The notes under the pieces are model-generated. The model was not told the origin of the DNA. It saw only the letters and a list, made by a program, of their open reading frames with translations, and did no database searches. Positions 4,453 through 52,107 of a stretch of DNA of 52,140 nucleotides are shown here, in pieces. The position numbers and the translations under genes are program-made. Source of the DNA: Deltaproteobacteria bacterium (lineage in GTDB: Bacteria; Myxococcota; JACRCW01); the NCBI GenBank assembly GCA_016218805.1, contig JACRCW010000101.1:1-52140 (forward strand), in the 5' to 3' direction. Every line of letters begins with the position of its first letter. The first letter of the stretch is position 1.

Positions 4453-6909
4453 CTACGCGGCGTCCGCCCCCACGGACGCCACCGGGATGCTGGGCACGGG
4501 CATGCCGTACGGAAGCCGCACATCAGGGCGGTACTCAAACTTGCAGCTGCCCATGTAGATGAGCGCCTGCGCGCGCTGGTTCAGGAAGCCCACGTAAGAC
4601 TGGTAGACCGCATCCTCCGGGGAGAGGCCCGCGCGGATGAGCGCGTTGTAGATGCCCTCACCCTCGCCGAGCACCAGCCGCACCAGCCCGTCCAGCGCAG
4701 GCACGTCCAGCGTCATCCAGTCCACCGCCTGGTCCAGGAAGGACGGGTAGGGCCCCGCCAGGCAGACGTAATGCAGCATCCCGTCCACGATGTAGAGCGC
4801 CGCGTAGTGCCCGGCCTGCGACGTCAGGGAGAACGCGCCGGTGGCCTTCTGGGTCTGGTAGGCCTGCAGGAGGTGTCCCATGCGCGCGGTGTGCGTCTGG
4901 CCCTGGTGGCGCGGCGGGTCGCCCAGGCCGGGGAACAGCGTCAGCGAATCCAGCCCGAACAGCGCGCCCAGGTCCGCGGAGTTGCGCGGCGCGCTCTGGG
5001 GCAACGCCACGGTGAACTGGCGCGGGTTCTGCGCGTTGGCCATGAAGCTGACGACCTCACGCGCGTTCATGGCGGCGGGCGGCTGGCCGGGGACCTCCAG
5101 CGTGTACGGCGCGTCCGGGCGTGACACGCCGCGGGTGGGCGCGCCGCGCCGGCTGGACGGCGGAGGCGACAGGATGGGCGCGACGGCGGGGGCCGGGGCC
5201 GGCGGCGCCGGTGGGGGCGGGGCCTGCGTGAGGAGCGCCGGTTCGTCCGCGGGCTCCAGCGCCTCTACGCGGCCACCCCCGGCAATGACCGCCGGCGCTG
5301 CGGGCTCCTCCACGTGGGTCTCCGTGGCGGCGGGGGCCGGCGCGGCCAGCCCCAGCGCCTCGTCGGAGGGAATGGGAATCTCGGTGCCGGTTTCCTCGTC
5401 GGGCCCCACCAGCAGTTCCACGCTGCTGCCCTGGGAGGCCGCCTCGCCTGAGGCGAACACCGACTCATCCACCGCGGGCATGCCGGCGTTGGTGAGTTGC
5501 ACGCCGGGCAGTTCGCCGGTGGTGTCCGGGAACGCATCCGGTCCGGGCGCCGCGGTCAGGCCGGTGAAGGACAGGGGTTCCGCTTCCTCCTCCGGCAGCG
5601 GCTCGTCCGCGCCGGGGCCCGGTCGCGTGGGTGGGTCCACAAACGCCTCAACATCCACGCTGGAGGAATCCTCCTCCTCGGGCGGACCGGGCCGCGTGGG
5701 CGGGTCCACAAACGCGTCCAGCTCCACGCCGGAGCCGCCTTCCGGCGGTGCGTCATCATCTTGCAGGGGCGGCGGCGGGGCGGGGGGCGGCGCCTCCGCG
5801 CGCACGTCCTCCATCCGCGTGCGCACGCTGTCCTCCACGCTGGCCAGCGGCCGGTCAAAGCTCTCATTGAACAGGCCCCAACTGGAGGTGGTGTCCTCCT
5901 CCGGCAGGTCCAGCTCCTCGGCCATGGTGACGTTCTCCACGGGGCGCGGGAGCGCGGCAATCTCCTCCGGGGTGAGCACCTTCACGTACTGGCCCAGCAG
6001 CTTGGCCAGCGCCTGGCTCAATGCGCGCGGGTTGGTCCCGGCCAGCCCGGGCAGCAGCGCCTTCTCCAGCGCGGCCGCGGTTTCAAACCGCGCCTCCGCG
6101 TGGCGGGACAGCGCCTGCAGGCACGCCTGGGACACCGCTTCCGGGCACGCCGGCTCCACCTGCCGGGGCGCGGGCACGTCCTGGGTGAGCACGGCGGTGA
6201 TGATGTCCATGTCGGACTTGCCCTTGAACAGCCGCTTGCCCGTCAGGCACTCCCACAGCAGCACGCCCGCGCTGAACACGTCGGCGCGCTGGTCGCTCTG
6301 TTCCTGCTGCATGACCTCAGGTGCCATGTAGCTGAGCTTGCCCTTGAGCTGGCCCAGGGTGGCCAGCACCATGGGGTCCGCGCGGCTGGCCACGCCAAAG
6401 TCCGCCAGCTTCACCACGCCGTCACGCATGACCACCACGTTGGAGGGGCTCACGTCCCGGTGGACCAGCATCAGCGCGCGGCCCTTGGCGTCCTTGAGGC
6501 CGTGCAGGTGCACCAGCGCGCGCACCACGCTCCACACCACGTAGGTGGCCAGCTGCACGGGCAGCTTCTTGCGCGCGCGCGCCAGGAACCCCAGCAGGCG
6601 CCCCAGGTCACACCCGTCCGCGTACTCCATGACCAGGAAGCGCTCGTCGCCGTCCGCCTCCATGCCGTGCACCACCAGCACGTTGGAGTGCCGCAGGCGC
6701 GCGGCCAGGCGGGCCTCGCGTTCCAGCGCTTTGACCACGTTCTCGTCAACGCTCAGCGTGGGACGGATGCGCTTGAGCGCGTACAGCTTGCCGGCGTCCT
6801 CGCCGGTGCGAGGCTCGGCCAGGAACACCTCACCCATGCCGCCGGAGCCCAGCAGCGCCAGGACGTTGAACCGTCCCAGGATGAACGGATTGAAGGCCTC
6901 CGCCGTCAC
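4453..6909 (-). CDS. Hanks-type Ser/Thr protein kinase with an acidic Pro-rich linker and a C-terminal DUF4388/PATAN-like domain
   Basis: GSGGMGEV, ALKRI, HRDVSPSN, DFG, GKLSYMAPE and DVFSAG motifs; C-terminal ATGAFSL...LYIVDG. Confidence 0.95.
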   Translation of the reverse strand: MTAEAFNPFILGRFNVLALLGSGGMGEVFLAEPRTGEDAGKLYALKRIRPTLSVDENVVKALEREARLAARLRHSNVLVVHGMEADGDERFLVMEYADGCDLGRLLGFLARARKKLPVQLATYVVWSVVRALVHLHGLKDAKGRALMLVHRDVSPSNVVVMRDGVVKLADFGVASRADPMVLATLGQLKGKLSYMAPEVMQQEQSDQRADVFSAGVLLWECLTGKRLFKGKSDMDIITAVLTQDVPAPRQVEPACPEAVSQACLQALSRHAEARFETAAALEKALLPGLAGTNPRALSQALAKLLGQYVKVLTPEEIAALPRPVENVTMAEELDLPEEDTTSSWGLFNESFDRPLASVEDSVRTRMEDVRAEAPPPAPPPPLQDDDAPPEGGSGVELDAFVDPPTRPGPPEEEDSSSVDVEAFVDPPTRPGPGADEPLPEEEAEPLSFTGLTAAPGPDAFPDTTGELPGVQLTNAGMPAVDESVFASGEAASQGSSVELLVGPDEETGTEIPIPSDEALGLAAPAPAATETHVEEPAAPAVIAGGGRVEALEPADEPALLTQAPPPPAPPAPAPAVAPILSPPPSSRRGAPTRGVSRPDAPYTLEVPGQPPAAMNAREVVSFMANAQNPRQFTVALPQSAPRNSADLGALFGLDSLTLFPGLGDPPRHQGQTHTARMGHLLQAYQTQKATGAFSLTSQAGHYAALYIVDGMLHYVCLAGPYPSFLDQAVDWMTLDVPALDGLVRLVLGEGEGIYNALIRAGLSPEDAVYQSYVGFLNQRAQALIYMGSCKFEYRPDVRLPYGMPVPSIPVASVGADAA

Positions 6910-6985
6910 GACTCCACCGCGCCGGGACCCACCCGGCGCCGGCGTCCTCTTTGGAATGGAACGGACAGACCGTCAACCACGCGGG

Positions 6986-7528
6986 TCAACGGTACGCGGG
7001 CGAAGGGAACAACCCTGTCAGCGTGTCCCGCAGCGCGCCCGCGGACGGCGTGGCGGTGTCCAGGCCCCACCAGCGGTAGTCCGTGAGGCCGGGGAGGTAG
7101 AAGTTGCGGCACTCCCAGGACAGGCTGGTTTCCAGCAGCAGCTTGTCCCCGGAGAAGAACCGGATGCCCCACGCCGGCTTGTGGCAGGACCGGGCCTGCC
7201 CGGCGGCAAACGCCTGCTGGCGCCACAGGCCGGCCAGCCGGGCGGCGTCCTGCGCGTCCAGCACTCGCACGGCGCGCACCTGCGCAAAGTCCCCGTAGGG
7301 ATAGACGGGGAAGGGGGGCGCGGTGGCGGACGCGCCGGAGGAGTCCGGGCGCGGCAGGCGCGGCCCCAGCAGCGCCACCTCCACGCGGTCCACCGCCGGC
7401 AGCTCCCGCAGGAACGGCGCGGTGCGCGCATCCTCAGCATTGTTTCCGCGGGCGGCCCCCAGCAGGGCCAGGGCCGCCACTGTTGCCGCCACGCCCCGCG
7501 GCCGGCTCCACCACGTGCTCCCGAACAT
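6986..7528 (-). CDS. Exported conserved hypothetical protein
   Basis: Signal-like N-terminus; CHKPAWGIRF...LETSLSWECRNFY motif; GC3-rich codon use. Confidence 0.7.
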   Translation of the reverse strand: MFGSTWWSRPRGVAATVAALALLGAARGNNAEDARTAPFLRELPAVDRVEVALLGPRLPRPDSSGASATAPPFPVYPYGDFAQVRAVRVLDAQDAARLAGLWRQQAFAAGQARSCHKPAWGIRFFSGDKLLLETSLSWECRNFYLPGLTDYRWWGLDTATPSAGALRDTLTGLFPSPAYR

Positions 7529-7561
7529 GCCCGGCGTTCTACCACGCCTGGTTGCGCCGGC

Positions 7562-10500
7562 TCACGTGCGCGTCTCAGCCAGGCGCGTGGTCAGCCGCTG
7601 GATGCGCTCGGTCTTGTCCTTGATCTCGCGCGCCTGGCGGTCCGCCCGCTCCTTGAGCTCCTCCACCTGGCGCCGCAACTCCTCCACGTCCGGCGGGAGC
7701 GGTGCAGCGGGGGAGGGCGCTGCCGCCTGCGCCGCGGTGGCCTTGAGCGCCTCCAACTCGCGCACGGTGGTGGACATGGAGGCGCGCGCCCGTTCCAGTT
7801 CCTTCTTCAGCTCCGCCGCCTCCGTCCAGGCCTGGTCCGCGGTCTGCGCGCGGATGCGCAGCTGGTCCGCGTCCGTCAGCACCGGCACGGGGCCGTCCAC
7901 GTGCGCCAGCTTGGCGCGCAGCTGGGACATCTGCTGGTTGATGGTGACCAGCTCCGCGCGCAGCGAGATGACCTGGGTATCCCGGTCCTTCAGCTCGCGC
8001 GCCAGCGTGGTCAGCGAATCCGTGGTCGTCACCGGGCCACCGCCGCGGGCGGGCTCGGATTCCAGTGTGCGGATGCGCTCCTTGAGATCCTTGGCCTCGC
8101 GCGCGCTCTCGTCTGACTTCCGCCCGGCCTGCTCCAGCCGCGCCCGGGTCCGCGCGAGTTCATCCTGCAGCGCCTGGTTCTGCTCGCCCGCCGCCTTCAG
8201 CGTGGCGGCCAGGGCGCCCTGGGCGTTGAGCAGCTCCGCGTCCCGCTCCTGCAACTGTGTCTGCAGGGCGGTGGACCGGGCGCGCTCGGCGTCCAGCCCG
8301 GCGTCTGTGCCGGGGGCGGCGGCGGCGGCAGCGCGCCCCGCCAGCGCAACATCCAGCTCCACCTGCAGGTGGGCCAGCTGCCCCTGTGCGGCCGCCAACT
8401 CGGCGCGGGCCTGCGTCAGGCGCGCCTCAGCGTCGTCAGCGGTGCGGGTCGCCCGCAGGATGGACTCGTCCCGTTCGGCGGCCACCGTCGTCAGCTGGGC
8501 CTGCAGGCGGGTGCACTCGGCCTCCAGGTCCCCTGCGCGTGTCTGCAACACCGCGCCGGCGGCCGCGCGGGCCTCTGCGGCCTCGGCCCGGGCGTGGGCC
8601 GCGGCGGCCTCTTGCTGCGCGCGCGCCAGCTCGCTCTCCAGCGTGGTGGTCCGTGCGCCGGCCTCAGCCGCGTCGTGCAGGCGGGCGTCGGCGGCGGCGG
8701 CCAGCGCGCGCGCCTCGGCCAGGTCCGCGCGGACGCGCGCCATGTCGGTCTCCAGGGCGGCGGCGCGCACGCGGGTGGCTTCCAGCTCCGCGTCCGCGGA
8801 GCGCCGCGCGGTCACCAGTTCCTCCTGGAGACGCGCCGCCCGCTCACGGGCCTCGGTGGCGGCCTGGTCCAGCTCTGCGGCGCGGCGCGCCGCTTCCTCG
8901 CGCTCGGTGGCGGCATGGGCGCGCAGGGTGGCCAGCGCCTCCAACTGGGCCGCGGCGTGCAGTGACGCCTCCTGTTCGGCCGCCGCGGCGGACTGGCGCA
9001 GCCGCGCAAATTCCACCTCCGCCTGCTGCCGGGCCGCATGGGCCTCCGCGGTCTCCGCGCGCGCGCGCTCCACTTCCGCGCGGTCCAGCTGATAGGCCAC
9101 CTCGGCATCGCCGTGGCGCGAGCGCTCCTCCTCCAGCAGGCGGCGCGCATCTTCCAGCTCGGCGTGCGTGGCCTGCGCGCGCGCCAGGGCCTGGGCGGTC
9201 TGGGCGCGCGCCTCGTCCAGGGTGCCACGCAGGGTGCGGGTGTCGTCGGTTGCCTGGGCCAGCCCGCCGCGCGCGGCGTCCAACTCCTGTTGCAGGGCGG
9301 CGGCGTGCTGGCGCGCCCGGTCCGACTCGGCGGACCAGCCCGCCGCGTGTTCCCGCGCCTCCTCCAACGCCGCGCGGGCATGGTCGGCGTCGTTGGCGGA
9401 GCGGCGCGCCTGTTCCTGCGCCTCCTCCAGGGCGGCGCGCACGTGGTCGGCGTCGTTGGCGGAGCGGCGCGCCTGCTCCTGCGCTTCCTCCAGCGCGGCG
9501 CGGACATGGTCGGCGTCGTTGGCGGAGCGGTGTGCCTGCTCCTGCGCCTCTTCCAGGGCGGCGCGGACATGGTCGGCGTCGTTGGCGGAGCGGCGTGCCT
9601 GCTCCTGCGCCTCTTCCAGGGCGGCGCGGACATGGTCGGCGTCGTTGGCAGAGCGCTGTGCCTGCTCCTGCGTTTCCTCCAGGGCGGCGCGGACATGGTC
9701 GGCGTCGTTGGCGGAGCGGCGGGCCTGCTCCTGCGTTTCCTCCAGGGCGGCGCGGACATGGTCGGCGTCGTTGGCGGAGCGGCGGGCCTGTTCCTGGGCT
9801 TCCTCCAGGGCGGCGCGGGCATGGTCGGCGTCGTTGGCGGCACGCCGGGCCTGTTCCTGCGCTTCCTCCAGCACGCTGCGCAGGTGCTCCACCTCGCTGG
9901 CGCGGCGCGCCAGCTCGTCGCGGGCCTGGTCACCCTGTTGTGACACCTGGCGGGCCGAATCCAGCTCGCCACCCAGCCGTTCCACCTCGGTGCGCAGGCG
10001 CGCAGCTTCCTCCTGGGCCTCCTGCGCGTCCTGCCGCGACAGGGCGAGCTGCTCGGTCATGGCGCCCAGGCGCTGGCCCGCCTTGCGGTTGTCCTCGTGC
10101 TGCTGGGTCCCCAGCTGGTCCACCTGCACGCGCAGCCCGGCCACCTCGGACTCCAGGGTGTCCGCGCGGCGCGCCCGCTCATCAGCCGCCGCCAGGCGCG
10201 CCTCCAGCTGCGCGGTCCGCGCGCGCTGGGCGGCCAGCTCCTCCTCCAACTGGGCCGCCCGCTGCGCCTGCTCCGCGGCGCCGCCCGCCTGGGACTCCAG
10301 GGCGCGCGCGCGCTCCAGCGCGGCCTTCAGGTCCTCGCCCAGGACCTGTTCCACGTCCACGGCCCGCTGCGCCGCCTCCGCGCGCGCGGCCTGGGCGTCC
10401 GCCAGGGCGCGCTCCGCCTCCACCAGCCTGGCGCGGACCCGGCCCACCTCGTCCTCGGCGCGTGCGCGCTGCTCGCGCGCCAGGAACGTCTCCCGCGCGG

Positions 10501-13225
10501 CGTCTTCCGCGCGCGTGGTGGCGGCCTCCAGCGCGCTGCGCGCCTGTCCCAGGTCGGATGCCCCCGCGCGCCCCTCGCGCACCGCCGCGGCCAGCTCCGC
10601 CTCCAGGCGGGGCAGGTCAGCCAGGCGCTGCTCCGCGGTCTGCTGGCTGGCGCGCGCCCCGGCCGCCTCCGCCTCCACCAGTGCCAGCTGCCCGCGCAGC
10701 TTCTCCAGCTGTTCGGCCAGGTCCGCCGCGGTCCGCCGCGCCGCCTCCGCCTCCGTGTGCTCCTGGCGCAACTCCTCCTTCACCGCACCAAACTGGTTCT
10801 TCAGCAGCTCAATCTCGCCCGCCGCCGCGGCCGTGGCCTCCCGCACGGAGGCCCGGGCCTGCTCCTGCGTGGACTCCGCGGCTTCGCGCAGGCGCGCGGC
10901 CGCCTCCTCCTCGTGCGCCAGCCGCTCCTGCAGCTGCGCCACGCGCGCGCTGGACGCCTGCAGCTTGATGGCCAGCTCGCGGCGGCCCTCCTCCTCCTCC
11001 TCCAGGCGTGTTGCCGCCTCGCGGCGCGTGCGCTCCGCCTCGGCCCGCGCGGCTTCCAGCGCCCGCTCGCTCTCCGCCAGGCGCGCGTTGGCGGACGCCA
11101 GCGCGTCCGACCGGCGCGCCACGTCCTCCTCCAGCATGGAGAACGCGCTCTGCCGGGAGCGGAACTCGGCCCGCAGCGCGCTGAGTTCAGACTCCAGGGC
11201 GGCCCGCTGCGCCTCCAGGGTGTCCGCCTTCTGCTGCAGCTCGCGCGCCGCCGTCTGCGCCGTCGCCAGTTCGCGTTCGCGCTGGGACAGCTCCTCGCGC
11301 AGCGCGCCGTTCTCGCGGGCGCGCTCCAGCATCTTGTCGCGCACGCCGCGGCCCCGCGCTTCGGACTCCTCCAGCTGTTGTTGCGCGGCGGCCACCTGCA
11401 GGGACAGCGCCTCCTGCTGGCCGCGCAGCACGTCGCGCTCGCGTTCCGCGTTGGAGATCTGCGCGCTGGCGGCGTCCATCATGGACAGCACCTGGCGCGC
11501 GCGGTCTTCCAGCTGCACCACCTGCCGCTGCAGCGCGTGCCGCTGTTCCACCACCTCCGCCAGCGCCCGCTGCGAATCCGTGCGCGACGCCTCCATGGCC
11601 GCGCGCTCCTGCGCCAGCGCCTCCAGCCGCGTGCGGGCCTGGTCCAGCTCCGCGTTCACCGCCGTCCACGCCTCGCGCGGGAGCCGCTGTTCCAGCTCGC
11701 GCGTGAGCCGCTGCACGTCCTTCTCCGCCTTGGCCAGGGCGCTCTCCGAGCTGTCCAGCCGGGCGCGCAGGCCGGCCACCTCGTCCAGCAGCCGCGCGTT
11801 CTCCCCGGCCACGCGCTCCAGCTCCGTGCGCCGCACCTCCAGCTCCGCGCGCGCCTCCGCCTGGCCGCGTGCCGCGCCCTCCAACTCGGACCGGACCGCT
11901 CCCAGCGCCGCCGCCTGCGCGCTGCTGCGCTGGCCCGCCTGGTCAGCCAGCTGCATGAGCTCAGAAACCTGTGCCTGCAGGGCGCTGCGCACCGTGTCGG
12001 CCGCGCGCAGCCCCGCCGCGGCAGACTCCAGCTCCAACGCCAGCCGCGTGCGCGCCGCTTCGGAGGCGGCCACCTCCGCGCGCAGCTTCTCCAGCTGGTT
12101 CTGCATGGTGCCGGAGCGGCCCTCGGCCATCTCGTGCGCCATGCGGGACAGGTCCAGGTCCGCGCGGATCTTCTGCAGCTCCTGGTGCGCGTGCCGGTGC
12201 GTCTCCCGCTCCTGCAGCAGCGCCGCCGCCGTGGCGCGTCCCTCCTCCACGGCCTTCTCCAGCGCCGCCACGCGGGCATCCCGTGCGCGCAGCTCCGTTT
12301 CCAACCCGGCCGCCTGCGCCTGCAGCGCCGCGTGCGCCACCCGCGCCGCTTCGCCTGCCTCCGCCTGCAGGATGATTTCGTCGCGCAGCAGCGGGAGCTT
12401 CTCCGCCACGGTGGTGAGCGCACGGTCACGGTCGGCCAGGGCGGAACGGATCCGGGCCACCTCCGCCTGGGCGCCCCGTTCCTGTTCGCCCGCCTGCTCG
12501 CGCAGGGCGTCCACGCGGTCCAGCAGCACGGCGGCCAGCTCACCAAAGGGCAGCTGCACCAGGGTCAGCTCGCCCGCGTCCGGGAGCGTGGCGCCGGCCA
12601 GGAACAGGTAATGCGCCACCGGTTCCGCCTGCCCGTCCATCAGCCCGGTGTCCAGCGCCACCGCCGGCTCTTCCGTTGTGGAGAACGGCGTGAACGAAAA
12701 CCCCAGCAGCGGCGCCTGCCCGTACACCGCCACCTGGGCAAACGCGCCGGACAGGTGCTGCACCATGTCCGCGTAGGAGGACTCTGCCGCCGGTTCGTCA
12801 TCCAGCAGCAGGCCGGGTGAGGTCCCCTCCGGGTTGAGCACGGAGGTCACCAGGAACCCCTGCTGCCCCAGGATCCGCGCGTACTCGTCCAGGCGCCAGG
12901 TTTCCCCGCGCTGCAGCGCGCCCGGCAGCGCAAAGTCAAGGATCACGTCAAACGCGCCGTCATCCGCGGGCACGCGGTTGCCGTCCGTCATGGCGCGGAA
13001 GTCCACCTTCTTGCTGCCCAACGTGCGGCGCGCTTCGGCCACCACCGCGGGGTCCACGTCCACGCCCACCACCCGCGTGGTCTCCATGCCCGCCACCAGC
13101 CGCACCACCGCGCCCCCGCCGGCGCCCAGCACCAGCACGCGGCGGCCCTTCAGCGCCGGCTCCAGGAAGCTGAGCCGGGGCAGCAGGTCCGCCAACGCCG
13201 CGTGATCCTGGAAAAGACGTTCCAT
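7562..13225 (-). CDS. Class I SAM-methyltransferase-like domain fused to a very long coiled coil
   Basis: N-terminal VLVLGAGGG, VVGVDVD and FDVIL motifs, then ~1,600 aa of A/E/Q/R/L heptads. Start set at the ATG of MERLFQ. Confidence 0.9.
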   Translation of the reverse strand: MERLFQDHAALADLLPRLSFLEPALKGRRVLVLGAGGGAVVRLVAGMETTRVVGVDVDPAVVAEARRTLGSKKVDFRAMTDGNRVPADDGAFDVILDFALPGALQRGETWRLDEYARILGQQGFLVTSVLNPEGTSPGLLLDDEPAAESSYADMVQHLSGAFAQVAVYGQAPLLGFSFTPFSTTEEPAVALDTGLMDGQAEPVAHYLFLAGATLPDAGELTLVQLPFGELAAVLLDRVDALREQAGEQERGAQAEVARIRSALADRDRALTTVAEKLPLLRDEIILQAEAGEAARVAHAALQAQAAGLETELRARDARVAALEKAVEEGRATAAALLQERETHRHAHQELQKIRADLDLSRMAHEMAEGRSGTMQNQLEKLRAEVAASEAARTRLALELESAAAGLRAADTVRSALQAQVSELMQLADQAGQRSSAQAAALGAVRSELEGAARGQAEARAELEVRRTELERVAGENARLLDEVAGLRARLDSSESALAKAEKDVQRLTRELEQRLPREAWTAVNAELDQARTRLEALAQERAAMEASRTDSQRALAEVVEQRHALQRQVVQLEDRARQVLSMMDAASAQISNAERERDVLRGQQEALSLQVAAAQQQLEESEARGRGVRDKMLERARENGALREELSQRERELATAQTAARELQQKADTLEAQRAALESELSALRAEFRSRQSAFSMLEEDVARRSDALASANARLAESERALEAARAEAERTRREAATRLEEEEEGRRELAIKLQASSARVAQLQERLAHEEEAAARLREAAESTQEQARASVREATAAAAGEIELLKNQFGAVKEELRQEHTEAEAARRTAADLAEQLEKLRGQLALVEAEAAGARASQQTAEQRLADLPRLEAELAAAVREGRAGASDLGQARSALEAATTRAEDAARETFLAREQRARAEDEVGRVRARLVEAERALADAQAARAEAAQRAVDVEQVLGEDLKAALERARALESQAGGAAEQAQRAAQLEEELAAQRARTAQLEARLAAADERARRADTLESEVAGLRVQVDQLGTQQHEDNRKAGQRLGAMTEQLALSRQDAQEAQEEAARLRTEVERLGGELDSARQVSQQGDQARDELARRASEVEHLRSVLEEAQEQARRAANDADHARAALEEAQEQARRSANDADHVRAALEETQEQARRSANDADHVRAALEETQEQAQRSANDADHVRAALEEAQEQARRSANDADHVRAALEEAQEQAHRSANDADHVRAALEEAQEQARRSANDADHVRAALEEAQEQARRSANDADHARAALEEAREHAAGWSAESDRARQHAAALQQELDAARGGLAQATDDTRTLRGTLDEARAQTAQALARAQATHAELEDARRLLEEERSRHGDAEVAYQLDRAEVERARAETAEAHAARQQAEVEFARLRQSAAAAEQEASLHAAAQLEALATLRAHAATEREEAARRAAELDQAATEARERAARLQEELVTARRSADAELEATRVRAAALETDMARVRADLAEARALAAAADARLHDAAEAGARTTTLESELARAQQEAAAAHARAEAAEARAAAGAVLQTRAGDLEAECTRLQAQLTTVAAERDESILRATRTADDAEARLTQARAELAAAQGQLAHLQVELDVALAGRAAAAAAPGTDAGLDAERARSTALQTQLQERDAELLNAQGALAATLKAAGEQNQALQDELARTRARLEQAGRKSDESAREAKDLKERIRTLESEPARGGGPVTTTDSLTTLARELKDRDTQVISLRAELVTINQQMSQLRAKLAHVDGPVPVLTDADQLRIRAQTADQAWTEAAELKKELERARASMSTTVRELEALKATAAQAAAPSPAAPLPPDVEELRRQVEELKERADRQAREIKDKTERIQRLTTRLAETRT
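9366..9869 (-). repeat. Eight 63-bp tandem repeats (EEAQEQARRSANDADHVRAAL) inside the coiled coil
   Basis: tggtcggcgtcgttggc recurs every 63 bp from ~9381 to ~9822. Confidence 0.95.
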
Positions 13226-13371
13226 GCACCGCCCACGTCGTGCACCGGGCATTCCCCCGGCGACGTTGTGGGACCGTAGGCCCCCTCATGACCCGCTTCA
13301 ACTTTCCGGCTCGCGGCTCCGCCGGATTCCGCTTGCCTCCGCTGTCCCACCTTGTCCTAGAAACGCTCCCC

Positions 13372-14787
13372 ATGGGCCACCTTGCTGACCGCCTGGAGAC
13401 GCGCGCCCCGCCCGCCGTGGCGGACCGCGCGTGGGAACTGCTGCGCCATCCCCACGTGCTGGGCTCCTTCCTCCAGCGCCAACTGCCGCCCTCCCAAACC
13501 GGCCGCTTTGCCCTGCCCCTTTCCGACGCTGACCCTGCGCCCCACCTGGTGGTGACGCCGGATGGCCGCGGCGTGACCTGCCTGGCGGCGGGCATGATCA
13601 CGGACAGTCCCCGTATCCCGTGGCCCCGCGTGGCGGCCTACCTGGACGCGCAGGCCCAGGACCTGCGCCAGCGCGTGGCCAGCGGGCGGCTGGCTGCGGA
13701 CGCGTCGCTGCATGAGAGCCTGGAGCGGTCCGTCCAGCGCGCCTACCGCATGACCCGCGCCGAGTTTGACCGCGTCCGCCTCCTGGCGCCGCTGCTGCAT
13801 GACCTGCTGAGAGAGATGCTGGACAAACAGCTCCGGCGCCTGGAGCGGGTGTCCAATGAGAGCCGGCGGCTGGCCCGCTACGCAGTGGACGCGCACGCGG
13901 ACGCCGAGTGGTCCCTGTACACCGCCGCCTGCACCATGCTGCTGGCCTGCGCCAATGAGCCCGGCGTGGAAATCCCCGCCGTCATGTCCATGAGCCCGCT
14001 GGATCCCCTGTTGAGCGGGCGCGGCCTGTGGGTCCTGGTGAACTGGCCGGAACGCACGCTGGCCCTGGCGGACCGCTGCCTGCGCGAAGACCGCCGGTCC
14101 TTCATGCCCTACCTCCGCGGCGCGTTGTCGTGCATCGGCTGGCGGTTCGCCTGGCACCGCCGGGCCGCGGAGCAGGCGCGTGCCACCATGCTTGCGGTGA
14201 CGCGCCAGGACTTCGTCACCCCCCCCGGCCTCACCCTGACGCGCCAGGACTGGCTGGAACAGGCGCTGGACGTGGCGCGGGATTCGGCCCGGGCGGGCCT
14301 GCCCCAGGATCCGCCGGCCCCCGCACCGCTGCGCAACGCAGAGGAACGGGACCTGCTCAAGGACCTGCAGCGCGCCGCCGCCGGTGACCCCGCCGTCCTG
14401 CGCGAACTTGACCGCCTGGACCCCGTGCGCGGCCTGTTCTCCGACCCGGTGGAACGCCGCTGGCCACCGCCGCACCTCCCAGCCGTGGTGGACCCCGCCG
14501 CGTTCTGGCAACGCCACATGCTCCACGCAACCGAGGAGTCGCCCTTCATGGAACTCAGCGTGGGGCTGTGGTGGTCCAACGCGTCCCTGGACGCGCTGGC
14601 TCCTCCCCCGGAACCAGACCCGTTGTGGTCCGCCGCGGACGGGCGCGCCTACGTCCGTGAAACGCTGGTCCGCAACCTGCGCGGCCCGCAGCCCCGTGAA
14701 CCCGATCGCGCCGCCCCCAAGCCCGGCCGCAATGAACCGTGTTCGTGCGGCAGCGGTAAGAAGTTCAAGCGCTGCTGCGGCGCGTGA
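13372..14787 (+). CDS. SEC-C motif protein, paralog A
   Basis: C-terminal PGRNEPCSCGSGKKFKRCC; N-terminal PHLVVTPDGRGVTCLAAGM shared with 16081..17469. Start chosen by alignment of the MGH N-termini. Confidence 0.85.
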   Translation: MGHLADRLETRAPPAVADRAWELLRHPHVLGSFLQRQLPPSQTGRFALPLSDADPAPHLVVTPDGRGVTCLAAGMITDSPRIPWPRVAAYLDAQAQDLRQRVASGRLAADASLHESLERSVQRAYRMTRAEFDRVRLLAPLLHDLLREMLDKQLRRLERVSNESRRLARYAVDAHADAEWSLYTAACTMLLACANEPGVEIPAVMSMSPLDPLLSGRGLWVLVNWPERTLALADRCLREDRRSFMPYLRGALSCIGWRFAWHRRAAEQARATMLAVTRQDFVTPPGLTLTRQDWLEQALDVARDSARAGLPQDPPAPAPLRNAEERDLLKDLQRAAAGDPAVLRELDRLDPVRGLFSDPVERRWPPPHLPAVVDPAAFWQRHMLHATEESPFMELSVGLWWSNASLDALAPPPEPDPLWSAADGRAYVRETLVRNLRGPQPREPDRAAPKPGRNEPCSCGSGKKFKRCCGA

Positions 14788-14792
14788 GGATG

Positions 14793-14912
14793 TGCGGCGG
14801 ATCCCATCCTGAGCAAGACGGTGAGGCGGGTACGCATGCACGCAGAACGTGCATGCAGTCCGGACGGGGCATTCGTGGCGCAGATGCCGGCTCAGGATGG
14901 GAGCCGCTCGCA
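14793..14912. other. Structured intergenic element (17/18-bp terminal inverted repeat with two internal hairpins); ncRNA, MITE or REPIN candidate
   Basis: gcggatcccatcctgagc (14797-14814) pairs with gctcaggatgggagccgc (14890-14907). Internal hairpins are GCATGCACG-cagaa-CGTGCATGC (14834-14856) and GGCAT...ATGCC (14868-14888). Confidence 0.7.
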
Positions 14913-15034
14913 ACTGCACCGGGAGCACCAGACTCCTGCCGAGCCCGTCGCGCGGTCCGGGACGGCCATTGACAGCCCGTTGAAAGCTATGGTTTTCACG
15001 GCGGCAACAAAACAACGCAAAGGAGGGGTTTCCC

Positions 15035-15778
15035 ATGCCCAACGGCACCCATCTCACCATTGACGAAATGGAACGCGTCATTGACGACCTGCTCGCCCGG
15101 CGCTCCCCGGCGCTGGCCCGGTTGAGCGCGGGCGGCATCTACCGCGCGCTGCTGGAGAAGAAGCAGGCGGAACTCAAGGCGCTGCCACCCGCGCTGCGCG
15201 GCCTGCCGCGCGCCGAACAACTCCGGCTGTTGGACGTGGACCACGACCGCTGCATCCGGGCCATCAACTACCTGCGCGAGGCCCTGGAGGCCTGGCCCTA
15301 CGCCACCCCCGCCATGCGGGCCGCCAGCGCCACCCTGGTCACTCACTTCATCACCGGCCCCGGGATGACCCAGAAGCCGTACGGCGTGCAGTCCCGCGTT
15401 GCCGCGGAAGCCGAACCCAAGCTCACCACCCACGGCCCCGCATTGGCCGCCGTGCCCACGCCGGACGGCGCCAACCTGAAGGTGTGGGTGGAGAAGTATG
15501 TGGCGGCGGGCAAGGCGCTGGGCAGCTCGCATTCGGGCCGCGCGGATGACCTGGCGGGGCGCGGGGACGGCGCCGCGGCCGCCCCACTGCGCGGCGCGCT
15601 GATTGGCATCTTTGTTGACCTGCGCACGGCCATCGCGCGTGAGCTTGAGGTCAACGCCGCACTCCCGCGCAGCCTGGAAGATGACGTCCTGGGCTACCTG
15701 GACGAATTGGAGCGCCTGGCCCTGGCCCGCGCCGCTGGCCCCACCGCCGCTCCGCCGGCCGGACCGGGCCCGGTCTGA
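15035..15778 (+). CDS. All-helical hypothetical protein, DUF6261-like by motif resemblance
   Basis: Strong SD (AAGGAGGGG) before the ATG. EQLRLLDVDHDRCIRAI and AASATLVTHFITGPGMTQKPYGVQ resemble the DUF6261 'ADxxRD' and 'AxxLxxxF...xxPYxxE' pattern. Confidence 0.85.
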   Translation: MPNGTHLTIDEMERVIDDLLARRSPALARLSAGGIYRALLEKKQAELKALPPALRGLPRAEQLRLLDVDHDRCIRAINYLREALEAWPYATPAMRAASATLVTHFITGPGMTQKPYGVQSRVAAEAEPKLTTHGPALAAVPTPDGANLKVWVEKYVAAGKALGSSHSGRADDLAGRGDGAAAAPLRGALIGIFVDLRTAIARELEVNAALPRSLEDDVLGYLDELERLALARAAGPTAAPPAGPGPV

Positions 15779-15794
15779 CCCCCGTCACAAAACC

Positions 15795-16020
15795 CGGTTG
15801 CAGCCGCCTTGGGCGTACCCCCGGGGTATGGGCTGGGCGGTTTCGGCCGTCTTGGGGGTGCCCCTGGGGTATGTGCCGGGCGGTTTCAACCGTCTTGGCG
15901 GTACCCCCGGGATAGGGGCCGGGCGGTTTCAACCGCCATGGAGTATCCCCGGGGTATGAGCTGGGCGGTGTCATCCGGCCTGGAGGTACCCCCTGGGTAT
16001 GGGCCGGGCGGTTACAACCG
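15795..16020. repeat. Non-coding tandem array of 43-bp units (5 full plus 1 partial), each with two palindromes
   Basis: Units start at 15795, 15838, 15881, 15924, 15966 and 16009. Consensus CGGTTTCAACCGyCTTGGnGGTACCCCCGGGGTATGGGCyGGG. Confidence 0.92.
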
Positions 16021-16080
16021 GGCGGTCACCCGCCACGTACGTGATTTCATGCGGCACTTGCCGGAGTGGGAGGAACGCGC

Positions 16081-17469
16081 ATGGGGCACGCCGCGCATTT
16101 CCTGGAACGGCTGGAGCGCGCTTCAGCGGCGGAGGCGGATGACGCGTTGGCGCTGTACCGGGATGTCCCCGGGTTGGCGTTCATGGTGTTCCGCTGCCTG
16201 CCGGACCTGGCGGCCGAGGCGCGGGTGGCGCTGTCACTGAATGCGGCGGACAAGGGCCCGCACCTGGTGGTGACGCGCGAAGGGCAGTTTGTGACCTGCC
16301 TGGGGCGGGGGATGGCGCCGCGGGGGTTGCCGGTGGTGAACCACCAGGCGTTGACGGCGGCGCGCGCGGAGCTGGCGGAGCAGCGCCGCCGCATGCAGCT
16401 TGCGCGGGAGCTGGCCGGCAGCGAGGACCTCAAGGGGTTGTGGCAGCGGCTTCTGGCCAAGGCGGAGGCGGTGTCGCGGGAGGAGTTCCTGGCCGTGGCG
16501 GCGCTGCAACCGTTGCTCAAGAAGCGCTTGTTGGTGTCGCACCTGCGCATTGCGGATGACCTGGCGGAGGCCCGGGAGTTGCTCAAGAAGGTGCAGCGGC
16601 CCACGGCGGCGCAGGCCAAGCACCTGCGGGCGTTCTGGCAGTCCGCGTGGTTCATGGGGGACCAGCTGGTGCTGGGGTGCCTGGACGGGCGGCGCGGGCT
16701 CACGCAGGAGTTGATCCGCGTCCTGTCCGCGGAGGGGTACCTTGCGTGGGGCGTGTTCCGCCAGGGCGAACAGGTGCTGGCCCTGCGCGCACTGTGGGCG
16801 ATGGGGCGGTGGGGCAAGCCGCTGCTGGAGGGGCTGACCGCGATGTTCAGCAAGGCCAGTACGCTGTTGAGTTGGATGTATTCGGCGTGCGGGCTGCTGA
16901 TGATTGCGCTGCGCTACCCGCAGTACCGGCGGCGCATCACGGACCTGGTCACGGCGTCCCGCCCACCGGATATCCTGCTGGACCACCTGGGCAAGGCCGC
17001 AGGGGCGTTTGCGAAGATCCTGGTGAAGTACCGCACCAGCCCGGAGGACCTGACGGACCTCAGCCTGCAGTGGTGGCGGCGCGAATACGTGCGCTTCCAG
17101 GACAAGGTGCACAGCCCGGCGCATCTGAGGTTTGCGACGGCCGCGGAGGTGCCGGAGGACCTGGCTCTGACGTGGGGCGCCAACCAGGAGGCGGACCTGA
17201 TGAATGACCCGGCCGCGCCAGTGGCGCTGTTGATGTGGTTGCCGTGGCTGGCCCGGGTGGAGGCGCAGGAGTTGTACCTGCCGGCGGAGGTGGCAGCCGT
17301 GTGGCGGACCCCGTGGCGCCCGGAGCGCGCACTGGCGTGGGTGCAGCGGTACGAGGACCACTACGGGCCGCGGCAACCCGTCACGGTGGCCGCGGTCCCC
17401 GGGCGCAACGCGCCATGCACCTGCGGGAGCGGCAAGAAGTACAAGCGCTGCTGCGGCGCCGCGGCGTAG
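16081..17469 (+). CDS. SEC-C motif protein, paralog B
   Basis: SD GGGAGGA before the ATG at 16081; GPHLVVTREGQFVTCLGRGM; C-terminal PGRNAPCTCGSGKKYKRCC. Confidence 0.9.
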   Translation: MGHAAHFLERLERASAAEADDALALYRDVPGLAFMVFRCLPDLAAEARVALSLNAADKGPHLVVTREGQFVTCLGRGMAPRGLPVVNHQALTAARAELAEQRRRMQLARELAGSEDLKGLWQRLLAKAEAVSREEFLAVAALQPLLKKRLLVSHLRIADDLAEARELLKKVQRPTAAQAKHLRAFWQSAWFMGDQLVLGCLDGRRGLTQELIRVLSAEGYLAWGVFRQGEQVLALRALWAMGRWGKPLLEGLTAMFSKASTLLSWMYSACGLLMIALRYPQYRRRITDLVTASRPPDILLDHLGKAAGAFAKILVKYRTSPEDLTDLSLQWWRREYVRFQDKVHSPAHLRFATAAEVPEDLALTWGANQEADLMNDPAAPVALLMWLPWLARVEAQELYLPAEVAAVWRTPWRPERALAWVQRYEDHYGPRQPVTVAAVPGRNAPCTCGSGKKYKRCCGAAA

Positions 17470-17517
17470 GCCGCCACCCGTTGCGTGCGGCCGCGGGTCT
17501 GCAGCAGAAGGCGCTCC

Positions 17518-18540
17518 ATGCCTTCCAAAACCATGCAGCGGGACCTGTTTGCCCCGCCCCCCGCCCTGGAGCTCAGCCCGGAGTCCCGCCGGTTGGCCAC
17601 GCTCCAGCAGGAACACGACAAGCTGCTGCGCCGGGTGCAGGAGACCGGCGAGACGGCCGCGAAGCTGCGGCGCGAGATGTCCGAGGGCATGGAGGATGTG
17701 GTGCGCGTGCTGGAGTCTCGGATGGTGGCGGTGCACGGGCTGCAGGAGGAGTTGCGGGCCGTGATGGACGCCCTGGCGGCGGACGGGCGGCGCAGCCGGC
17801 GCGCGCGCACGGCCATCCGGGAGGCGCGGGTCTACCTGGAGCGGGAAGGCTTCCTGAGCGAGGTGAGCGTCCGGGCCGGGCCGGGGGCGGACCCGCCGGA
17901 ACGCGAGCCGTACGCCCTGGAGGAGGAGGAGCAGGACGAGCCGGAGCAGGTGTCCGCGGAGCGGCCGGTGAACCGCGCTGAGATCAAGGGGGTGTTCCGG
18001 CGTCTGGCGGCGGCGGTGCACCCGGACCGCGCGCAGGATGATGAGACGCGCGCCCGCCACACGGCGGCCATGAAGGAGGTCACGGCGGCGTACCATGACG
18101 GGGACTTTGCGCGGCTGCTGGAACTGGAGAAGGCGCTGGGAGTGGGGTTGCCGCAGGGCGGGCAGGACCCGCAGGCGCGCGTGGCGGCGCTGGAGCGCCT
18201 CAACAAGGAGCTGCGCCGGCAACTGCGGATCCTGCAGACGGAGGTCCGCCGGACGCGCCGCACGCCGGAATACGCGGCGCTGCGGGAGGCCCGGACGCCG
18301 GCGGGCCGCGCCAGAATGCAGCAGGAGGCTGACGCCGAGGTGAAGCAGATGCGCACGCTGGTGGAGTTTGTCACCGCGTTCCGGGACGGGAAGATTTCCG
18401 TGGCGCAGTTTGAGGCGGGGCCGGCGGCCGACGCGGCGAGCGTGGCGGAGAGCCTGGATGCGTTTGCGCGGGAGATGGAGGCGATGTTCGCCGCCGAGAA
18501 GCCGTCCCCGCGGCCGCGCAAGAAGAAGGGACGGCGGTAG
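17518..18540 (+). CDS. Coiled-coil protein with an internal J-domain (HPD motif)
   Basis: EIKGVFRRLAAAVHPDRA...AMKEVTAAY is a J-domain helix II-HPD-helix III, flanked by coiled coils. Confidence 0.85.
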   Translation: MPSKTMQRDLFAPPPALELSPESRRLATLQQEHDKLLRRVQETGETAAKLRREMSEGMEDVVRVLESRMVAVHGLQEELRAVMDALAADGRRSRRARTAIREARVYLEREGFLSEVSVRAGPGADPPEREPYALEEEEQDEPEQVSAERPVNRAEIKGVFRRLAAAVHPDRAQDDETRARHTAAMKEVTAAYHDGDFARLLELEKALGVGLPQGGQDPQARVAALERLNKELRRQLRILQTEVRRTRRTPEYAALREARTPAGRARMQQEADAEVKQMRTLVEFVTAFRDGKISVAQFEAGPAADAASVAESLDAFAREMEAMFAAEKPSPRPRKKKGRR

Positions 18541-18558
18541 GGCGCCGCGGCGTGGCAG

Positions 18559-19086
18559 TCAGGGGCGCCACAGGTCCTGGACCGGCACGCTCCAGCCCGC
18601 CGCCAGCCGGGATTCCATCCGGTCACCCACAGTGACCATCTGCGTCAGGGACGTGCTCAGTTCCACGCAGCGGAGGTGCGGGTCCACCATCCAGTATTCG
18701 CGGACGCCGGCGCGCATGTACATGAGCCGCTTGGCCATCCGGTCATACGCGCGGTTGGCGGAGAGTATCTCCACCACCAGTTCAGGAATCTGCTGCAGGG
18801 GTTGGGCGTCACCCGGATGGCTCAGGAACAGCGCCAGGTCTGGCTGCAGGACGGTGTCCTCGCCAAAGAGCACGTCAATGGGCGCGTACACCGCCCACGC
18901 CGGCGGGTGGGCCACCGCCCACGCGTCCAGCGTCCTGAACAACCGAACGGATACCTGCTGGTGCCTTGGGTGGGGCGCTGGCGCCAGCACGACTTCCCCC
19001 TCGACGAGCTCAACGTGCGCCATGGACTCCGGAAGCGCCAGGAACTCAGCCAGGTTCACATACGCCTTCTGGGACACGGTCAACAT
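18559..19086 (-). CDS. Uma2 family (PD-(D/E)XK) putative restriction endonuclease
   Basis: ELVEGEV..PAP...HQ, LQPDL, PELVVEILS, KRLMYMRAGVREYWMVDP. Confidence 0.92.
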   Translation of the reverse strand: MLTVSQKAYVNLAEFLALPESMAHVELVEGEVVLAPAPHPRHQQVSVRLFRTLDAWAVAHPPAWAVYAPIDVLFGEDTVLQPDLALFLSHPGDAQPLQQIPELVVEILSANRAYDRMAKRLMYMRAGVREYWMVDPHLRCVELSTSLTQMVTVGDRMESRLAAGWSVPVQDLWRP

Positions 19087-50550: not shown

Positions 50551-52107
50551 TCACAGCGAGAAGACGTACGTCGCTCCGCTGGCCAACGCAGTGTTGTCGG
50601 ACTGGATGCCATTGATGCCCGTGGCGGCGCTGTCCTCAAAAGCGGCGCCTACCGCCAGCGTGCGGCCGTCCGCTGACAGGGCAAACTGAGTGCCGAACTC
50701 GTCGCCCACGTCGGTGTTGGAGGCCTTCACATAGGTGGGCGCGGTCCACGGGCCCGCGGTGGTTCGGGTGAACACGTACACCGCGCCGCTGCTGGCCACG
50801 GAGTTGTCCACCTGGTTGCCGCTGAAACCGGTGGCAGCGCTGTCCTCCCAGTCCGCAACCACCGCCAGCGTGTTGCCGTCAGCGGCCAGCGCCACGACGA
50901 CGCCGAAGTGGTCCATGGCGTCCGTGTTGGTGGCTTTGAGGTAGGCCTGCTGGGTCCAGACCCCGCCGGCGCGCGTGAACACGTACGCCGCTCCAGCGCC
51001 GTTCTGCGAATTGTCCACCTGGTTCGCATTGATGCCTGTGGCGCCGCTGGCCTCGCCGTACGCGCCCACCGCCACCGTGTTGCCATCCGCAGCCAGCGCC
51101 ACGGACCAGCCAAACTGGTCGTTGCTGTCGGTGTTGGAGGCCTTGAGGTAGGCCTGTTGGGCCCAAGCCACGCCGGAGCGGGTGAAGACGTAGACCGCGC
51201 CGCTGGACCAGGCGTCGTTGTTGGACTGATTGCCCTGGACGCCGGTGGCGTTGCTGTCTTCCTCGGGCGCGCCAACGGCCAACGTGTTGCCATCCGCGGA
51301 GAGGGCAAGCGCACCAAAGTAGTCAATGGCGTTTGTGTTGGAAGCCTTGAGATAGGCCTGCTGGGTCCAGGTACCGGCCGTGCGGGTGAAGACGTACGCC
51401 GCGCCGCTGGCGGACGCGGTGTTGTCCGCCTGGTTGCCGTTGACGCCGGTGGCGGCGCTGTCCTCCAGAGTGGCCCCCACCGCCAGCGTGTTGCCATCCG
51501 CGGACAGCGCGACGTGCGTCCCAAAATGGTCCGGCGCTCCGGTGTTGGACGCCTTGAGGTAGGCCTGCTGCGTCCAGGTTCCGCCCGTGCGGATGAACAC
51601 GTACACCGCGCCACTGTCCTGCGCGGCGTTGTCCGCCGGGTTGCCGTTGACCCCCACGGCGCTGCCGTCCTCCCCGTGGGCCGCTACAGCCAGCGTGTTG
51701 CCGTCAGCCGAAAGAGCGACGGCGTTGCCAAATTCATCGCCCGAGTCGCTGTTGGCCGCCTTCAGATAGGCAAACAGCGCGGCGGAAAGGCACTGCCCCG
51801 TCCCCGAGCTGCACCCCAGCGGACAGCTGCCGGTTGCACACGGGTCCGCCAGGCACGCGTCGTTGACGCAGGTCTCGCCAGCGTGGGGGCACACCGTGGG
51901 CGGTGACCACTCGCGGCACGGGTCGGCATCGGCGGTGGTGACGCACGTCTGAATCCGCGTGCCGCTGCACTGCGTGGCGCCTTGTGCTGAGCACTCGTCG
52001 GGTGTGATCGCCCATGGTTGTGGCCTCCGTTCCATGGCGACCAGCCGGAACGCAACGCGGGGCCGACGTCGTCTGACGGGCCGTCTTGGCAGGGTGCCGC
52101 GAGACAT
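50551..52107 (-). CDS. FG-GAP/integrin-like beta-propeller protein with a Cys-rich N-terminal region (start uncertain; frame open to the window edge)
   Basis: Six YLKASNT..DxFGxxVALSADGNTLAVGA...SGAVYVF repeats. Confidence 0.88.
   Translation of the reverse strand: MSRGTLPRRPVRRRRPRVAFRLVAMERRPQPWAITPDECSAQGATQCSGTRIQTCVTTADADPCREWSPPTVCPHAGETCVNDACLADPCATGSCPLGCSSGTGQCLSAALFAYLKAANSDSGDEFGNAVALSADGNTLAVAAHGEDGSAVGVNGNPADNAAQDSGAVYVFIRTGGTWTQQAYLKASNTGAPDHFGTHVALSADGNTLAVGATLEDSAATGVNGNQADNTASASGAAYVFTRTAGTWTQQAYLKASNTNAIDYFGALALSADGNTLAVGAPEEDSNATGVQGNQSNNDAWSSGAVYVFTRSGVAWAQQAYLKASNTDSNDQFGWSVALAADGNTVAVGAYGEASGATGINANQVDNSQNGAGAAYVFTRAGGVWTQQAYLKATNTDAMDHFGVVVALAADGNTLAVVADWEDSAATGFSGNQVDNSVASSGAVYVFTRTTAGPWTAPTYVKASNTDVGDEFGTQFALSADGRTLAVGAAFEDSAATGINGIQSDNTALASGATYVFSL

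Follow-up and report, generated by a model that had tools for sequence, protein, structure and literature searches.

A DUF6261-related helical protein gene and an adjacent four-helical-turn DNA array recur as a two-part module in myxobacteria and Bacteroidales

Here, we describe a two-part element in a 52,140-nucleotide stretch of DNA from a Deltaproteobacteria bacterium (Myxococcota; GenBank assembly GCA_016218805.1, contig JACRCW010000101.1), hereafter the window, which is the entire contig C64 of a 6.4-Mb assembly with a GC content of 70%. The first part is a gene for a 247-amino-acid (aa), all-alpha protein (15035..15778, + strand), a remote DUF6261 homologue by sequence clusters and hhalign, all-helical in AlphaFold2 and modelled as a symmetric homodimer, and the second, recognised by repeat and coding-score analysis, is a non-coding tandem array of 5.3 copies of a 43-bp unit (15795..16020, no strand assigned). 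An earlier note, made from the letters of the window alone, had set this pair within a larger system, in which two SEC-C paralogues bracket a 120-nucleotide (nt) structured element, the helical gene and a palindromic array, followed by a J-domain coiled-coil protein and a convergent Uma2 gene. The order, strands and coordinates of all these parts match what we find, and all of them exist but they do not form one system: it is the helical gene and the adjacent four-turn array that recur, as a two-part module, across two phyla. A 4.9-kb contig piece identical to 12500-17366 looks independent, but may stem from the source sample.

The central open reading frame (ORF) has a strong coding score in a hexamer model trained on this genome, and the three ORFs that overlap the array score as non-coding in the same model. 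Its expression signals (14969..15026, + strand) are a TTGACA box (14969-14974) and a strong Shine-Dalgarno sequence, AAGGAGG (15020-15026), the latter as the earlier note had it; a promoter scan of 13200-18700 returned no full sigma-70 promoter. Many Polyangiaceae members of the family (upstream regions of L020, L026, L028, L045, L064 and L091) appear leaderless, with a TTGAC plus TA-N3-T box ending about 7 nt before the ATG. The array begins 16 nt past the TGA of the central ORF, and its units (four helical turns; 78% matches, score 263) show visible dyads, but in this GC-rich array the symmetry is not above that of column-shuffled controls (p = 0.32), which qualifies its description as palindromic. 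The units fold into hairpins (z = -2.1), no Rfam family matches the array, and a sister orphan lies on contig C20 (1664-1930), between two convergent genes. Compared with a CRISPR array, the array here consists of degenerate 43-bp whole units with no unique spacers and no Rfam CRISPR match; CRISPR-like arrays of two repeat types were seen at G000 C59:44220-45848, C97:34754-35272 and C113:35309-36069.

The central protein has a family of 514 clusters (50% identity, E<=0.001) that is mostly myxobacterial, its closest homologues lying mostly in Myxococcota. A degenerate pattern scan gave at least 120 genome matches, 80 of them with flanks (40 family members, and 40 non-members that were dropped), and 39 metagenome matches, all family members. 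Among the matches listed, 12 of 34 genome loci have an array with a phased period downstream, whereas for windows at neighbour genes the figure is 6 of 94 (one of the six being a family gene's own upstream array), and none was found at off-phase periods; in the metagenomes the count is 7 of 27 loci. For the 52 loci among the matches listed with both flanks available, the array is downstream in 20, upstream in 15, absent in 17 and on both sides in none. When 50 loci among the matches listed are collapsed at 70% identity, with this genome left out, 34 lineages result, 22 of which have an adjacent array with a 42-44-bp period (11 upstream, 11 downstream and 0 both; p = 0.005 for no overlap), and under the same either-side rule the background in this genome is 147 of 4484 genes (3%). 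The side of the array changes often across the family on a quick tree. Within this genome, the array is adjacent at five of the six best profile matches of fitting length, the sixth having its array beyond one cargo gene, and the paralogue on contig C96 has a 127-bp array unit (3 x 42.4).

The same pairing is found well outside this family. Pfam DUF6261 occurs in 12 of 101 Bacteroidales genomes, and at the 30 genes taken from the 48 matches listed, a 41-42-bp array lies upstream in 16 and downstream in none, while distant homologues in five Sorangium genomes have an array at 16 of 22 loci, in about five orthologous groups. On average, the period is 43.0 bp across 22 arrays of the myxobacterial family and 41.4 bp across 16 arrays of Bacteroidales. 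Between the phyla, period correlates strongly with GC content (rho 0.77); inside each of the two groups it does not (p 0.09 and 0.64), so that DNA twist is not shown to be the explanation. At this constant period the array sequences are unrelated, being alike only among close proteins, and in two pairs of loci with related arrays the array is turned round with respect to its gene. No recurring partner was found among 69 neighbour genes of family loci (E<=1e-8; eight near-orthologous loci left out), and the same 69 include no ParA, integrase or transposase, and one Cas family gene. The earlier note had staked its module on arrays linked to homologues of the central gene; such arrays are what we find, so that a gene with a helically phased array is a recurring unit, of which the upstream 120-nt element is no part. 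The pairing probably marks an undescribed protein-DNA system.

Arrays of this kind are numerous in the genome. It has 115 non-coding arrays, 74 of which have a period at multiples of about 21.3 bp and thereby count as constant-length satellites. Many of the arrays follow Ala-rich orphan genes of 210-310 aa, in about eight families. These families, of helical genes, adjoin 21-22- or 42-44-bp arrays, most with orphan array copies, on contigs C10, C13, C15, C21, C42, C54, C59, C73, C78, C99, C133, C143, C144 and C164 (L134-L155). Three of these families are linked to DUF6261 by sequence; no sequence kinship was shown for the five further ones (D-H), one of which has an Atlas structure lead (template-modelling score, TM, 0.56), and these five, having been picked via their arrays, are not counted as evidence for linkage. 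Most gene-linked arrays of this genome have one or two orphan relatives elsewhere. Two paralogues that are 89% identical share one array family, and in one of them a 1.4-kb cargo gene separates stop and array. Cargo between family gene and array was seen at L248:4138-7315, G000 C42:8119-9303 and G000 C133:68283-69709 (an AAA ATPase with a metallo-beta-lactamase-fold gene, a 394-aa unknown and an uncalled ORF), the L248 cargo being bracketed by a 10-bp near-duplication.

The 247-aa protein has no match in Pfam, NCBIfam or PADLOC, including none to Pfam DUF6261 (PF19775) at its 27-bit cut-off, and a word-based homologue search returned 3 proteins only. The label "DUF6261-like", given in the earlier note, holds at the profile level only: hhalign of the central family against Bacteroidales DUF6261 gives a probability of 94.6 (E 7e-8, 193 columns), the DUF6261 profile weakly matches 3 of 128 family members (best E 2e-4), and by Atlas features the protein scores 0.96 to clusters with 14-31% DUF6261. 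The D-x-x-[HR]-D and Y-x-x-E motifs are common to both, and in the alignment of 128 clusters of the central family L63, D67, D71, A123, G159, R169, R186, R197, F219 and D223 are nearly invariant and H70, Y116 and E119 strongly conserved. On this profile-profile homology over most of the chain, we assign the protein to the DUF6261 superfamily. It resembles the Pfam family in these respects and in having an adjacent four-turn array, and differs from it in scoring below the cut-off and in arrays that are 42-44 bp and on either side, not 41-42 bp and upstream. DUF6261 includes proteins labelled hemagglutinin in Atlas cluster names, among which, we presume, are HagB and HagC of Porphyromonas gingivalis. 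In two phylum samples, of 301 and 401 genomes, the central family turned up in 1 and 4 genomes, respectively, counts that say little on its range as few candidates were scored per genome, and single queries returned no relatives in viral contigs, plasmids or phages.

The AlphaFold2 model of the protein (predicted local distance difference test, pLDDT, 93) consists of helices only. Foldseek returned nothing at E<=0.001 in PDB or BFVD, and VIA-align gave as its best match (Z 10.1, root-mean-square deviation 2.8, 107 aligned) a four-helix bundle of generic type, which neither identifies nor excludes any known fold. A two-copy model has an interface score (ipSAE) of 0.59, against 0.00 for the best of 3 controls, with runs that agree in at least 89% of contacts, a pLDDT of at least 75 and a symmetric interface centred on residues 72-91. 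Of 30 solved homodimers, 20 pass the mark used, as does 1 of 23 single chains, counts that are only roughly valid here, where the alignment was custom. The model thus supports, but does not show, a homodimer.

What, then, might the protein do with its array? We give an even chance to a stand-alone module in which a dimer coats its cognate double-stranded array, in the manner of SopB on sopC but with no nucleoside triphosphatase, because the arrays are independent of side and orientation, their period is locked to helical turns, their sequences are private and the modelled dimer is symmetric. The gene, with its own promoter and arbitrary neighbours, would supply a two-fold symmetric dimer that binds one site per repeat, and the four-turn spacing (42-44 bp for the myxobacterial family and 41-42 bp for Bacteroidales) would bring every dimer to the same face of the helix, where they could assemble cooperatively into a short nucleoprotein track. 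An array that acts as duplex DNA could lie on either side of the gene and in either orientation, as is observed. Orphan copies of the same array would be further sites for the same protein, each paralogue controlling its own small set of loci, and most likely the protein would regulate itself or block transcription at the array, and would bridge the gene-linked array and its orphans.

Several observations weigh against such coating. The family is acidic (median isoelectric point 5.6), and Pfam and NCBIfam recognise no DNA-binding domain in it. Many of the 74 phased arrays of this genome have no such gene beside them, and an adjacent array is absent from 12 of the 34 lineages. In the myxobacterial family, 4 of 34 arrays have a dyad symmetry above that of shuffled controls, compared with 9 of 14 in Bacteroidales, so that a palindrome reading by sequence is weakly supported in the myxobacterial branch; a second symmetry axis at half the period was found in 11 of 49 arrays, where about 12.7 are expected by chance. 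In addition, linkage by itself would lead array and protein to vary together.

The system that coating by a dimer most recalls is the sopC centromere, each repeat of which carries a 16-bp palindrome. As described in the available text of PMC9178275, sopC (parS-F) of the F plasmid, a type Ia ParABS system with SopB, consists of twelve 43-bp repeats, and the likeness to it lies in 43-bp tandem repeats adjoining the gene of a dimeric protein (here, a modelled dimer). Unlike sopC, the pair described here has no ParA neighbour, either in the window or among the 69 neighbours, and its protein has no plasmid match by the single query. By Pfam and NCBIfam the protein is of no ParB family, a group marked by CTPase and HTH domains, although the fold searches, which list generic helical bundles, cannot exclude one. 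Furthermore, the arrays here are chromosomal, with many paralogous pairs per genome, private sequences and an array on either side.

A second comparison is with the satellites of Subirana and Messeguer, which, in the accessible parts of their papers, have a fixed period and a variable non-coding sequence and for which an unknown polymerising protein was proposed (PMC8161180, PMC6749651). The arrays here are like them in a fixed period that is a multiple of the helical turn, in unrelated sequences and in several families per genome. They are unlike them in that the published periods are 20-23 and 52 nt, with no protein or gene linkage named in those parts, whereas the arrays here go with one particular protein superfamily. 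Thus, the proposed but unnamed partner of constant-length satellites now has a named candidate, and the idea becomes testable with dozens of natural protein/array pairs, through swaps of cognate and non-cognate partners. No description of the gene-array pairing was found in the literature searched, which excluded most subscription journals and in which DUF6261 occurs in two papers, in one of them as a table row, and DUF6261 is not named in the main text of two 2026 preprints on prokaryotic non-coding arrays, the supplements of which may bear on novelty.

More tentatively, and as a possibility that we rate well below the coating of a single array, DUF6261-like proteins might bind DNA through a new fold and make up a class that is widespread and diversifies fast, each member reading a private four-turn array from either side and in distant orphan copies; they could then be the missing readers of constant-length satellites, and the track a sequence-independent landing pad for IS1-family elements. 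If true, this would mean a new DNA-binding fold with a re-programmable code and a source of orthogonal protein-operator pairs, as well as a transposon target that is independent of sequence, and it would put in question the hemagglutinin label on some DUF6261 proteins.

An alternative that we regard as unlikely is a selfish satellite, in which the protein, or a host helper that it recruits, makes or spreads fixed-length repeats, with gene-linked arrays as the sources and orphans as the copies. The model would be the repetitive extragenic palindromic (REP) sequences and the related BIMEs and REPINs with their REP-associated tyrosine transposases (RAYTs), which are gene-linked repeats with dispersed copies and are targets of insertion sequences. 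Repeats that are both gene-linked and dispersed are shared with that model, but here there is no HUH transposase, and the arrays are head-to-tail, of fixed period and low in copy number (1-5 per family). It fits copying that one array family has two to five matches per Sorangium genome, with orphans at different places in different strains, that a catalytic site could be formed by the D-x-x-H-D, Y-x-x-E and Arg residues, which hardly vary, and that at L028 the array starts inside the last codons of the gene. The protein is not recognised as a nuclease, recombinase or polymerase by family or by fold, however, no target duplication surrounds the module, and the orphan at L254 keeps an apparent 3' end of the gene, which points to gene loss instead.

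Quite unlikely, in our view, is an account with no binding at all, in which the arrays are ordinary constant-length satellites and serve as insertion hot spots where solitary mobile genes accumulate. Insertion into arrays does happen: elements of the IS1 family (by Pfam) split Sorangium arrays with 8-bp duplications and at one phase of the unit, three such elements occurring in So ce375, and of the six left ends examined in one IS1 subfamily, three lie directly against a 43-bp array and three do not, the arrays concerned belonging to two different sequence families. It is possible that IS1-family elements target phased arrays independent of sequence. Transposons of this family with passenger genes lie in or against arrays in Sorangium, at L249:4148 and 11042, L250:4436, 4528-12842 and 12939-17026, L254:5360 and L298:1500, and a single query found no IS1-like transposase in the present genome. 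The cargo genes between gene and array, and two Uma2 genes that adjoin arrays in this genome, also suit a hot spot. Insertion into an array, on the other hand, leaves repeats on both sides, and beside the family genes they are confined to one side (0 of the 52 listed loci on both); moreover, gene and array are linked in two phyla, each branch having its own period. A related case from Bacteroidales is MITE464/PgRS of P. gingivalis with its 41-nt tandem Repeat C (PMC2575886, PMC4596501), which is alike in being non-coding and linked with insertion-sequence ends, and unlike in that Repeat C is the interior of a miniature inverted-repeat transposable element (MITE) with IS5-type ends and has no gene-family link in the portions of those papers available.

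That the array works as RNA, be it as the antitoxin repeats of a type III toxin-antitoxin-like pair or as a leader or trailer bound by the protein, we hold to be very unlikely. The hairpins into which the units fold would suit this role, as would a terminator-like hairpin between array and gene at one Bacteroidales locus (L210). Yet the side and orientation of the array switch among relatives, an array that lies upstream stops 5' of the TTGAC box and so outside the likely mRNA, the period is tied to helical turns and Rfam has no family for it; in terms of a type III layout, where an upstream RNA repeat array precedes a terminator and an endoribonuclease toxin in one transcript, the array is downstream here and its side varies, with no toxin family recognised. 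The larger system of the earlier note, a joint action of SEC-C paralogues, leader, helical gene and array with the J-domain protein, is scarcely credible and largely refuted, since the parts are co-directional in the window but do not co-occur in 79 family loci, their orthologues elsewhere stand alone and the leader is a dispersed repeat.

That supposed leader, the 120-nt structured element, lies at 14795..14912 (no strand assigned), and its hairpin is real: arms at 14797-14814 and 14890-14907 are 94% complementary, and 14788-15034 folds with z = -2.7. The element is a REP/MITE-like dispersed repeat, and not a leader of the central gene, because it occurs at 16 places in the genome (15 besides this one) and is absent from the 79 family loci. 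Its copies all fall at the ends of contigs or in the gaps between called genes, with best 83-nt cores that are 83-89% identical and with shared terminal inverted repeats, often together with a longer composite left part. It is of the general kind of the REP/BIME/REPIN repeats, matches no Rfam family and has no flanking direct repeat over 5 bp.

The genes on either side are bystanders. SEC-C paralogue A (13372..14787, + strand, 471 aa) and paralogue B (16081..17469, + strand, 462 aa) are paralogues as claimed, 27% identical, each with a C-terminal SEC-C motif as its only Pfam match; the genome has four full-length paralogues, with a common unnamed, conserved N-terminal domain. This domain has the motif LVVTxxGxxVTCLxxGM and is not in Pfam; the paralogues have orthologues in related genomes (L003, L004). 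The coiled-coil protein is also present (17533..18540, + strand), although its DnaJ match in Pfam is weak (E 4e-5) and under the cut-off, and the Uma2 family gene (18559..19086, - strand) has a strong Pfam match; with tblastn, 18 places in the genome match, this one included. The 79 family loci, 37 of at least 6 kb, include one motif-only SEC-C match, no J-domain match and Uma2 at two loci. At four orthologous loci of the SEC-C and J-domain genes, from three relatives, the neighbours are unrelated and there is no helical gene or phased array, and in the closest relative the genes around the J-domain orthologue are likewise unrelated; the proposal that these genes are members of one system is thus not supported. 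The further proposal that the module was inserted between the two SEC-C genes is unproven: no direct repeat that could be a target duplication flanks gene and array, and contigs from 4 runs of one study hold no empty-site joint, the joints listed in them having sides of 20-25 letters that look like chance.

Elsewhere in the window, 7562-13252 (- strand) encodes a protein of about 1,890 aa with an N-terminal methyltransferase domain followed by a very long coiled coil, in which 8.3 in-frame 63-bp repeats fall at 9351-9871, and in-frame 207-bp repeats (5.5 copies) at 50556-51702 lie within a 447-aa ORF that is probably a propeller-repeat protein.

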